Below, piece after piece: positions 21,371 to 22,498 of a stretch of 64,000 bases of DNA; the first letter of the stretch is position 1, and each line of letters begins with the position of its first letter. The position numbers and the translations under genes were made by a program. Source of the DNA: an uncultured Clostridia bacterium. Lineage in GTDB: Bacteria > Bacillota > Clostridia > Christensenellales > UBA1242. The notes below the pieces were generated by a model. It was not told where the DNA came from. It saw only the letters and a program-made list of their open reading frames with translations, and did no database searches. The stretch is from the NCBI GenBank assembly GCA_934757825.1, contig CAKVLP010000001.1:93834-157833 (forward strand), in the 5' to 3' direction.

Positions 21371-22498
21371 TTAAAACAAAGGCAATATTTCAAATTCAAA
21401 CATCTCAGCAATATTTTTAGGAACTTTTAGGTCGTCCACGCACACAAGCGATATGCTAGAACTATCACTCACTCGTTTTGCACACGCCAAGATGTTTTTA
21501 ATCTTAAACGTGGTCTTTGGACTTATCTCTTGATAGTTGTTGGATTTTAGATAAACAAAGTTGCAGGATTTTGCTAATTGGCTAAGTCCACTTAGCACAA
21601 CAACCACGTTTTTGCCCTGCTCAGCTTTTCGCTTACATTCCTCAAAAACCATATCGCTAGCGATGATTATCTCTTCGTCCATCTTATTGAATGGGACATA
21701 TTCAATATTCATACTATCGTCATAGTTTATGCGCTCTGGCATAGCATTTAGATAAAGCGTAATAACTTCGGCATTCTTTACTTCTTTCTTTATTGTCTCG
21801 GCTATTTCTGGCACAACATCGTACACATCGCGATTTGTTTTTACAAAATATCGCCCGCCAAGTTTGAAGTTTGAAATATCAATATGGATATTGTAGCCAT
21901 TTTTAAGTTTGTCGCCCTTTGCTAGGTCGAAGTCAAATTCGGGTTTTTTATCAAGTCTAGAAACTTCGTATGCAACCTCTGGATATCCTTCTTTTACAAG
22001 TTTTGCCCAAGCCGTAACTCTCTCGCCACTTTTTAGTTCCAATTGTTTTACTATGTTTTTGCCTATAAAAACATCTCTTTCCGATGGACAAATGCCTTCA
22101 ACGTGAAGCACGCCATATCCTTCGGGCTTTATCTCAACACAGCCTTTGTACTGTTTGCCCTCGGTATTTGAGGAGTAGCCCGCCGAGCCCATATTTAGCA
22201 CAAACGAAAACTTATCTTGCGCCAAATCGTATTCGTTTTTCTCGTCAACTTCCTTTAATCCTTCCGCTTTTGGCAAAATAAAGTCAACCACATCGAAGTT
22301 GTCGGCGCTTGTTCTTGCTGGTCTGCCTTTTTTGCTGTGTCTAGCAAAAGGTTCTATCTCGCCTTTCATTATTTTCATTATTTCTTCGATTATTTCTTCT
22401 TTTTTTAGAATTGTAGGTGCTTGCACGCCCATTTTACGCGCCAAATCCCTTAATTCGTGAATTCTTAATTGCTCTAAATCTGAAATCTTGTTTTCCAT
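21371..22498 (-). CDS. Rho-derived protein: Rho N-terminal domain, OB-fold RNA-binding domain and a degenerate, truncated ATPase-like domain
   Basis: N-terminus DLEQLRIHELRDLARKMGV is Rho_N-like. GCVEIKPEGYGVLHVEG...DVFIGKNIVKQLELKSGERVTAWAKL parallels E. coli Rho GVLEILQDGFGFLRS...[24 protein letters not shown]. The P-loop position reads KLGGRYFVKTNRD, with no GK[ST]. The [17 protein letters not shown] position reads NVVVVLSGLSQLAKSCN. Confidence 0.6.
   Translation of the reverse strand: MENKISDLEQLRIHELRDLARKMGVQAPTILKKEEIIEEIMKIMKGEIEPFARHSKKGRPARTSADNFDVVDFILPKAEGLKEVDEKNEYDLAQDKFSFVLNMGSAGYSSNTEGKQYKGCVEIKPEGYGVLHVEGICPSERDVFIGKNIVKQLELKSGERVTAWAKLVKEGYPEVAYEVSRLDKKPEFDFDLAKGDKLKNGYNIHIDISNFKLGGRYFVKTNRDVYDVVPEIAETIKKEVKNAEVITLYLNAMPERINYDDSMNIEYVPFNKMDEEIIIASDMVFEECKRKAEQGKNVVVVLSGLSQLAKSCNFVYLKSNNYQEISPKTTFKIKNILACAKRVSDSSSISLVCVDDLKVPKNIAEMFEFEILPLF

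Follow-up and report, generated by a model that had tools for sequence, protein, structure and literature searches.

What remains of the termination factor Rho when its motor is gone, and is what remains still a Rho gene? Rho is usually viewed as an obligate ring-shaped ATP motor, and lineages are described as having or having lost it. A gene that fits neither description lies in a 64,000-nucleotide (nt) stretch of an uncultured Clostridia bacterium (Christensenellales; UBA1242; assembly GCA_934757825.1, contig CAKVLP010000001.1, positions 93,834-157,833; this whole stretch is called the window below), where it encodes a 375-amino-acid (aa) Rho-derived protein. Comparison with related loci led us to an account in which this gene is the rho ortholog of its lineage, has lost motor and C-terminal tail stepwise, and has been kept by selection with an ATP-independent binding role of its N-terminal part, and we hold this account, taken as a whole, with moderate confidence.

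The gene and the parts of its product are located as follows.

21371..22498, minus strand: coding sequence of the 375-aa Rho-derived pseudo-ATPase (list of open reading frames; stop codon at 21371-21373).
22358..22498, minus strand: N-terminal helix bundle (Rho_N), aa 1-47 (Pfam, 25-sequence alignment, entropy, and the ratio of nonsynonymous to synonymous rates, dN/dS).
22163..22357, minus strand: insertion between helix bundle and OB fold, aa 48-112, of low confidence and probably disordered (predicted local distance difference test, pLDDT, of an AlphaFold2 model).
22319-22333, minus strand: nearly invariant AT-hook-like KKGRP, aa 56-60 (25-sequence alignment).
21944..22162, minus strand: OB fold (Rho RNA-binding domain), aa 113-185, with pocket residues Y128, G129, V130, H132, D142 and F144 (Pfam, residue census).
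21374..21859, minus strand: RecA-like remnant, aa 214-375, without nucleotide-binding motifs and ending at about E. coli residue 340 (phmmer, BLASTP, motif table).
21821..21844, minus strand: equivalent of the Walker A P-loop, aa 219-226, VKTNRDVY, in a shorter loop (aligned with Rho of E. coli and with its canonical sisters).

The 375-aa protein is a Rho homolog that retains the helix bundle, the KKGRP insertion, the OB fold and the fold of the RecA-like core. Pfam placed Rho_N (PF07498) at aa 7-42 with 30.4 bits (cut-off 24.9) and Rho_RNA_bind (PF07497) at aa 118-169 with 35.7 bits (cut-off 27), and the scan gave no match of ATP-synt_ab (PF00006) to the protein even at E≤10. In a phmmer search of PDB sequences, Thermotoga maritima Rho was matched (3l0o, E=3.9e-12), a third aligned stretch pairing the RecA core (aa 228-358) with Rho 191-326, and the Rho proteins of M. 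tuberculosis, T. thermophilus and E. coli were matched as well. BLASTP against E. coli Rho (419 aa) was collinear, pairing aa 119-354 with Rho 53-318 (E=3e-7), and its gap falls exactly on the P-loop. The AlphaFold2 model, built from the 25-sequence family alignment, had a mean pLDDT of 80.5, and all 50 Foldseek matches listed from the PDB were Rho (E ~1e-19). Against the NCBIfam Rho equivalogs the protein scored 79.8 bits for NF006886 (cut-off 315) and 73.8 for TIGR00767 (cut-off 509). An initial annotation, made from the letters alone, had described a Rho-derived protein with Rho_N and OB fold beside ypeB, sleB and spoIIR; Pfam matches above cut-off bore out both domains and the identities of YpeB, SleB and SpoIIR, and the RecA-like core that it had recognized by eye was recovered by phmmer, BLASTP and Foldseek, although the Pfam ATPase model alone finds none. 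Thirteen metagenome contigs (13) encode an identical 375-aa protein and share the gene order of the window. The identity of the gene and its evolutionary origin are well supported.

Catalytic motifs were called on an alignment that set the window protein against E. coli Rho and, from related genomes, eight canonical Rhos. At the P-loop column, IVAPPKAGKT of Rho is replaced by VKTNRDVYDV, and GxxxxGK[ST] is absent anywhere in the RecA-like domain; DERPEE reads NAMPER, with the catalytic Glu (E211) changed to A252 and the Arg valve (R212) to M253, and in Walker B the LLDS motif reads VLSG, with S303 at the D265 column. The secondary RNA-binding site is not kept, since the Q-loop segment reads LKSNNYQEISP, and the columns of K283 and T286 (Q-loop) and K326 (R-loop) hold S, Y and N in a stretch that aligns with less certainty. 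No residue of the protein lies past the column of about E. coli residue 340, so that R353, the Arg finger R366 and the C-terminal segment (~340-419) are gone. This formal alignment with nine Rhos revealed no intact P-loop that the eye had mis-registered, and it agreed with the initial annotation on the missing Walker B Asp and on the truncated C terminus, whose size had to be revised from about 60 residues to ~80. Nucleotide binding and an Arg finger are needed in RecA-family ring motors, Rho among them, to couple ATP hydrolysis to RNA translocation. Having neither, the window protein would be unable to act as an ATP-driven RNA translocase or to perform classical Rho-dependent termination.

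The window protein belongs to a large family. A word-indexed search yielded 53 full-length relatives (355-408 aa), and an exhaustive profile search over 1.84 billion representatives gave 5052 matches at E≤1e-3, 169 of them at E≤1e-30; the family amounts to >130 clusters at 50% identity, with intact reading frames of conserved length. We classified a set of 156 sequences, which comprised the top representatives of ≥330 aa together with E. coli Rho, the window protein itself and ten references drawn from the loci described below. Fifteen were canonical, with APPKAGKT, DERPEE, D265 and R366 in place and 80-95 residues of tail; 35 formed a "long dead" class of ~420-495 aa, in which the C-terminal tail is kept and the catalytic motifs are lost or altered; and 106 were "short dead" forms like the window protein, so that ~141 of the 156 are without canonical motifs. 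A lineage-specific N-terminal signature, made up of [SG]I[FHY]ELR..AR..GV.SPT and, near residue 60, (K/R)GRP(P)K, was found in nearly all members, canonical ones included. Scores on NF006886 fell continuously through the family (574, 539, 347, 340, 254, 142, 84, 80 for the window protein, 45 and 43 bits; cut-off 315). The member with 340 bits, P0132 (L032 2668-4092), has no P-loop (IAVSPKTDTALL) and still exceeds the cut-off, and the one with 347 bits, P0162, carries APHLTGKT, GERPEE and R366 changed to T. The two short forms with an NCBI name, one from a cluster of the word-indexed search and one met when cluster members were listed, are both called "hypothetical protein". Annotation-based counts of Rho may therefore err both ways, because P0132 would be named Rho automatically and the named short forms are called hypothetical.

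Two exact N-terminal patterns, which match a minority of the superfamily's N termini, were scanned against one genome per species for 185,579 species. The scan returned 31 loci encoding a Rho relative (L001-L031), all in metagenome-assembled genomes (MAGs) of uncultured gut Clostridia, many labelled Christensenella or Christensenellaceae; the closest canonical relatives came from MAGs labelled Clostridia or Christensenellales. GC content was considered as a discriminator of dead from canonical loci (29-36% versus 41-56% among the scan loci) and rejected, since the locus of the canonical P0150 has a window-like 37.7%.

The chromosomal position of these genes bears on their origin. In the window, the order is metG (32133-34184), tatD, ksgA, veg, sipL, spoIIR, sleB, ypeB, the dead rho, a giant gene, pilin-like genes of type IV secretion system (T4SS) kind and TraG/VirD4. 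In 17 of the 31 loci (L001-L017), a short form directly follows ypeB and is convergent with a giant gene wherever the locus reaches it, and veg-sipL-spoIIR-sleB-ypeB precedes it, as in the window, where longer upstream sequence is available. Canonical rho was present in nine of the 31, eight of which (L018-L024 and L029) encode an ATPase domain that shares 56-60% identity with its E. coli counterpart; the sequence of the ninth canonical-type locus, L030, ends after 144 residues and sits behind a Prs-like gene (PrsL) and an MBL-fold gene. The order in L018 and L021-L023 is spoIIR, sleB, ypeB, Prs-like, MBL-fold and rho, then tilS and cca where the locus reaches them, and the canonical P0150 (L050) lies in spoIIR-sleB-ypeB-DUF1846-PrsL-MBL-rho.

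Intermediate forms, which decide the matter, occupy the same slot. P0148 (463 aa) is full length, with a variant P-loop (GERGSGKT), DD at Walker B and an E211K change, and Pfam still detects ATP-synt_ab in it; P0154 (449 aa) is without a P-loop and retains DERPED and the tail. Their gene orders, veg-sipL-spoIIR-sleB-ypeB-P0148 and metG-tatD-ksgA-...-spoIIR-sleB-ypeB-P0154, each followed by the giant gene and TraG in the opposite orientation, match that of the window. P-loop-less long forms were also found in the ancestral slot, P0132 directly after PrsL and P0194 directly after MBL.

A tree independent of the Rho sequences was built from concatenated SleB and YpeB by neighbor joining (653 columns, 100 bootstraps). 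Carriers of non-canonical forms were separated from canonical carriers with a bootstrap value of 88, P0154-type plus short forms from the rest with 100, and short forms from the rest with 82; the branching order (canonical, P0148-type, P0154-type, short) is the order of decay. Because canonical, intermediate and short forms hold one slot and this tree nests the stages, the gene order and the tree together show the gene to be, by position and descent, a positional ortholog of rho and not a paralog, and to have undergone stepwise decay in situ. The decay ran from canonical Rho to a form with E211K and a variant P-loop, then to loss of the P-loop, and then to loss of the C-terminal tail. P0148 has the derived synteny with a P-loop, and P0132 and P0194 have the ancestral synteny without one; by parsimony on synteny, we infer that Walker A was lost at least two times independently in the clade. 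Such repeated loss suggests either that Rho in this clade was by then serving a purpose that needs no motor, or that termination by Rho is dispensable there.

The initial annotation had called the gene a paralog of Rho and proposed it as a modulator of true Rho. In that scheme, the protein would stand beside an active canonical Rho and modulate it through mixed or poisoned rings or through competition for rut RNA, which requires a second canonical rho. Some bacteria do have two Rho-type genes, and extra "Rho-like" sequences are common according to the main text of a recent survey (PMC11347177); the N-terminal RNA-recognizing module is kept, and a second gene could lie elsewhere in these genomes. 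The name paralog does not survive the common slot by spoIIR-sleB-ypeB and the nesting of decay stages on the SleB+YpeB tree, and the ring-interface elements that mixed hexamers would use (Arg finger and C-terminal segment) are missing. A tblastn search of the window with E. coli Rho gave nothing beyond chance, and no dead-form locus has a canonical rho within 10 kb of the dead form. None of the 31 assemblies of the scan had both a canonical and a dead form, or two Rho-type matches of any kind, which is weak evidence because the exact patterns match only a minority of superfamily N termini. A search with P0150 for proteins bearing the locus-tag prefixes of two dead-form MAGs, IJE91 and IKB42, reached saturation at 8000 scored candidates, and the best 120 of these were shown without locus tags, which makes it uninformative on this point. 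We consider a modulatory paralog unlikely.

Could the neighborhood itself disclose the function? The expression signals around the gene are listed here.

22521..22549, minus strand: predicted SigmaA-type promoter, TTGCTA-17 nt-TATAAT (consensus scan 10/12; sequence read).
22509-22512, minus strand: GGAG ribosome-binding site, 10 nt before the ATG (sequence read).
22553..22581, minus strand: TTGTAAAAAA, present twice at a distance of 19 nt and close upstream of the -35 element, a candidate UP-element-like tract or operator (exact-match scan).
21300..21331, no strand assigned: putative bidirectional intrinsic terminator AAAAAAGCACGGAATTTCCGTGCTTTTTT between the dead rho and the convergent giant gene (sequence read; not listed by the consensus scan).

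The promoter sits in the 95-nt gap downstream of ypeB, and the arrangement TTGC[ACT]A-17-TATAAT, ~20 nt, AGGAG was kept in L001-L003 and L010-L017. The terminator consists of a hairpin and a T-run with an A-run flank and would serve both convergent genes; the hairpin is nearly identical in L003, and a hairpin with a T-run lies downstream in most orthologous loci. Neither the consensus scan nor reading of the sequence found a terminator between ypeB and the dead rho, so that read-through from the forespore genes is possible. Rfam gave no RNA family near the gene. As predicted from these signals, the gene forms a transcription unit of its own, with a promoter of housekeeping type and a separate terminator.

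TTGTAAAAAA had four exact matches in the window (2.5 expected), two of them upstream of the dead-rho promoter; it was dropped as a window-wide over-represented repeat and is a local lead only. The exact two-copy pattern with 11-nt spacing had no match in the orthologous loci compared, and A-rich repeats or the palindrome TTTGTACAAA were found at the same place upstream of the -35 element in L001-L007, L012, L017 and L025-L028. The promoters of L014, L017, L027 and L028 contain perfect Spo0A-box-like heptamers (TGTCGAA/TTCGACA).

These heptamers, together with the possible read-through from ypeB, would fit a sporulation or germination factor that works with SpoIIR, SleB and YpeB, for example as a nucleic-acid-binding protein of the forespore. 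The arrangement spoIIR-sleB-ypeB followed by the dead form is strict in those of L001-L017 that reach far enough upstream and in L043 and L045, and in Bacillus subtilis rho is transcribed from a SigA promoter in growth, is re-expressed in sporulation by read-through and from a SigF promoter, and affects spore properties (PMC11599450). The adjacency, however, is older than the degeneration, for canonical rho sits in the same place, and the gene has its own conserved TTGCxA-17-TATAAT promoter; furthermore, the divergent dead-form lineage of P0083 and five scan loci with short forms (group C; L025-L028 and L031) are without sleB-ypeB upstream. Since canonical rho sits there too and the gene has its own promoter and terminator, adjacency to spoIIR-sleB-ypeB is uninformative on function; the sporulation neighborhood is, as far as gene order and signals tell, inherited synteny and no evidence of a sporulation function. 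A dedicated sporulation role thus appears improbable to us.

Group C differs in other respects as well. Its short dead forms are ~350 aa long (L025 9986-11038, L027 5088-6143, L028 9989-11053, L031 3-1031), with a canonical-like N terminus (SIFALRDFARKIGVKSPT, RHGRPPK) and "DD" kept at the Walker B position, and its sources are "Candidatus Onthoplasma" and MAGs from rabbit gut. Upstream, L025, L027 and L028 have a 115-aa gene (MazF/PemK in L025), and downstream there is a 317-aa gene in L027 and L028 (an MscS channel in L028) and a 1962-aa gene in L025.

The N-terminal module is highly conserved. The helix bundle is the most conserved block, with I13, H14, E15, L16, R17, D18, A20, G24, V25, P28 and T29 invariant in the 25 aligned sequences and a mean column entropy of 1.12 bits (versus ~2.0-2.2 for the OB and RecA-like domains). 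Second in conservation comes KKGRP, of which K56, G58, R59 and P60 are conserved in ≥90% of the alignment, inside an insertion whose pLDDT is <50 at aa 54-72 and 83-111. An AT-hook is defined by an R-G-R-P core with basic flanks; canonical sister Rhos have R-G-R-P-P-K at this position, and the window protein reads K-K-G-R-P-A-R, the first Arg of RGRP being Lys or Gln here. The primary RNA pocket of E. coli Rho, which we take to be [Y/F]62-G63-F64-R66-D78-Y80, has become Y-G-V-H-D-F in the window protein (F64 to V, R66 to H) as opposed to the canonical [Y/F]-G-F-R-D-Y. The six positions are without variation in all 15 canonical relatives, compared with ~50-80% retention in the 106 short forms, 25 of which keep an aromatic residue at position 64. 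The claim that the RNA-binding surface is retained thus holds for the fold and fails in part for the pocket, which is only partly kept here and relaxed across the short forms. The isoelectric point is 5.6 for the whole protein, 5.8 for the helix bundle and 8.0 for the OB domain.

The conservation of KKGRP and the helix bundle, higher than that of all other elements, might also be read as the mark of a nucleoid-associated protein, whose HeH-type helix bundle and KKGRP would coat AT-rich DNA and replace silencing by Rho passively; the genomes are AT-rich (30-38% GC), and A-tract repeats lie directly upstream of the gene's own promoter. The GRP motif, however, is also present in the canonical sister Rhos, which are presumably directed at RNA, the first Arg of RGRP is replaced, and the protein is acidic overall, and we regard a passive DNA-coating role as very doubtful.

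Selection on the gene was examined by comparing the window gene with those of L001 and L003 (71-73% aa identity). The proportion of nonsynonymous differences (pN) was 0.10-0.23 and that of synonymous differences (pS) 0.61-0.84 across every domain, with 0.16-0.19 versus 0.70-0.80 in the RecA-like half; synonymous sites are saturated, so that the pN/pS ratios resemble upper bounds, and pN is still far below pS. In the more divergent group B (L008-L017), dN/dS was 0.3-0.6 in the RecA-like half and 0.02-0.19 in the helix bundle. These comparisons of coding sequences show a gene that is under purifying selection, its RecA-like half included, and that is not a pseudogene. A functionless rho relic on its way to deletion, which the loss of all catalytic motifs and the faster RecA-like half of group B might bring to mind, is scarcely credible given the intact frames in >130 clusters, the low pN in all domains, the invariant N-terminal residues and the conserved promoter, ribosome-binding site and terminator.

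We therefore return to the account favored at the outset, of a rho ortholog kept for something other than its motor. In it, selection would maintain ATP-independent binding by the N-terminal module, to RNA, possibly to AT-rich nucleic acid through the GRP hook, and/or to the transcription complex, and the RecA-like remnant would be a structural or oligomerization scaffold only. The functional part of this account, ATP-independent binding in transcription or RNA metabolism, is weakly indicated by the retained helix bundle, GRP hook and OB fold. Several points weigh against the account. An acidic protein with a relaxed RNA pocket weakens the reading of a simple RNA-binding protein, at least as judged from composition and pocket residues. 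These genomes may have another, canonical rho outside the loci compared, the exact-pattern scan being the one genome-wide look; the trees are simple neighbor-joining trees; and the synteny common with the canonical loci is limited to sleB-ypeB upstream, as PrsL, MBL and tilS are not near the dead forms.

How do these genes relate to known Rho systems? E. coli-type Rho (NF006886/TIGR00767; PDB 1PV4, 3ICE, 3L0O) has the same order of helix bundle, OB fold and RecA-like core, and the canonical sister Rhos have the same chromosomal slot, the lineage-specific N-terminal signature and the insertion; the window protein differs from E. coli-type Rho by the absence of the P-loop, the catalytic Glu, the Arg valve, the Walker B Asp, the Q-loop, the Arg finger and the ~80 C-terminal residues. 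Type 2 Rhos (Bacteroides, Mycobacterium, Micrococcus) carry an N-terminal insertion domain and are active ATPases. A predicted-disordered insertion between helix bundle and OB fold is likewise present in the window protein and in its ~500-aa canonical sisters, but the motor is gone in the former. NF041509 (paralog_Rho2, "Rho, short form") also describes a shortened Rho-family member, in that case an OB fold with an intact ATPase domain; the window protein scored 35.9 bits against its cut-off of 628, in a local match to profile positions 133-222 only, and is not a member.

[quoted passage not shown] There, 30% of Bacillota species are given as lacking a functional Rho, and two Actinomycetota (Baekduia soli, Conexibacter woesei) as having only Rho-like sequences; this main text offers no function, synteny or evolutionary series for them (PMC11347177). 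By Pfam models, which are not the survey's own profiles, the window protein fits the class as that text describes it, with Rho_N, Rho_RNA_bind and no ATPase match, and it differs in that its family is clostridial, has a recognizable dead RecA-like domain and is an in-situ ortholog with intermediates. Among the sources searched, the family was found only in metagenomes and MAGs. Searches of the literature for Rho homologs that are inactive or pseudo-ATPases brought up nothing more specific than the Rho-like class, and the demonstration of an in-situ ortholog, the graded intermediates and the size of the radiation in gut Clostridia appear to be new.

The giant gene that faces the dead rho (7487-21295, plus strand) encodes 4602 aa in which Pfam recognizes no domain, with a hydrophobic anchor at the C terminus. 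Beside it (3532-5601, plus strand; 5713-7048, minus strand) are a gene for a TraG/VirD4-type coupling protein and three small T4SS-pilin-like genes. A giant convergent gene (2744-3413 aa) accompanied the degenerate Rho in every checked lineage whose locus reaches far enough, and in L051 it was present although sleB-ypeB was absent upstream; canonical rho loci that reach downstream have tilS in its place.

We considered whether the giant gene yields an unusually rut-like (C>G) transcript that selected against Rho, and rejected this, since its skew of -0.09 compares with -0.08 to +0.01 for the other plus-strand genes of the window, a similarity that marks it as a replication-strand effect. Over the whole window, coding-strand GC skew was -0.09 to +0.01 for plus-strand genes and +0.05 to +0.36 for minus-strand genes, except 60287-61057 (-0.05). 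From this skew and the near-steady fall of the cumulative curve, the minus strand is the leading strand and the 13.8-kb giant gene is transcribed head-on to replication.

Two further regions of the window deserve mention. Between ksgA and veg, three conserved genes of 177, 490 and 305 aa (27192-30430, minus strand) have no Pfam match and keep their synteny in L001-L016, suggesting conserved proteins specific to the lineage within the origin-proximal housekeeping cluster. At 39035-44711, a tRNA gene (39035-39106, plus strand) is followed by a patch of ~28% GC (40-44 kb; ~37% elsewhere) whose genes specify a NUDIX protein, a protein with a Bro-N domain and one of 687 aa without a Pfam match; this region is probably an integrated island.

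For the clade as a whole, a further step can be proposed only tentatively, and we would not call it probable: that the sole Rho-family gene turned into a factor that works without ATP, Walker A having disappeared in two or more independent events. If this is true, a motor-independent function, essential or strongly beneficial, arose in the clade's Rho before the motor decayed; it could be binding of RNA or RNA polymerase through the helix bundle and the GRP hook, and these bacteria would live without classical Rho-dependent termination yet still need "Rho". For these gut Clostridia, surveys of Rho-dependent termination can overcount as well as undercount. One chromosomal slot here holds a natural series of canonical Rho, a catalytic-Glu mutant with a P-loop, a P-loop-less full-length form and a truncated form, those tested being under purifying selection. 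This series suggests that the N-terminal module of Rho has an activity independent of the motor, and it makes such an activity directly testable.

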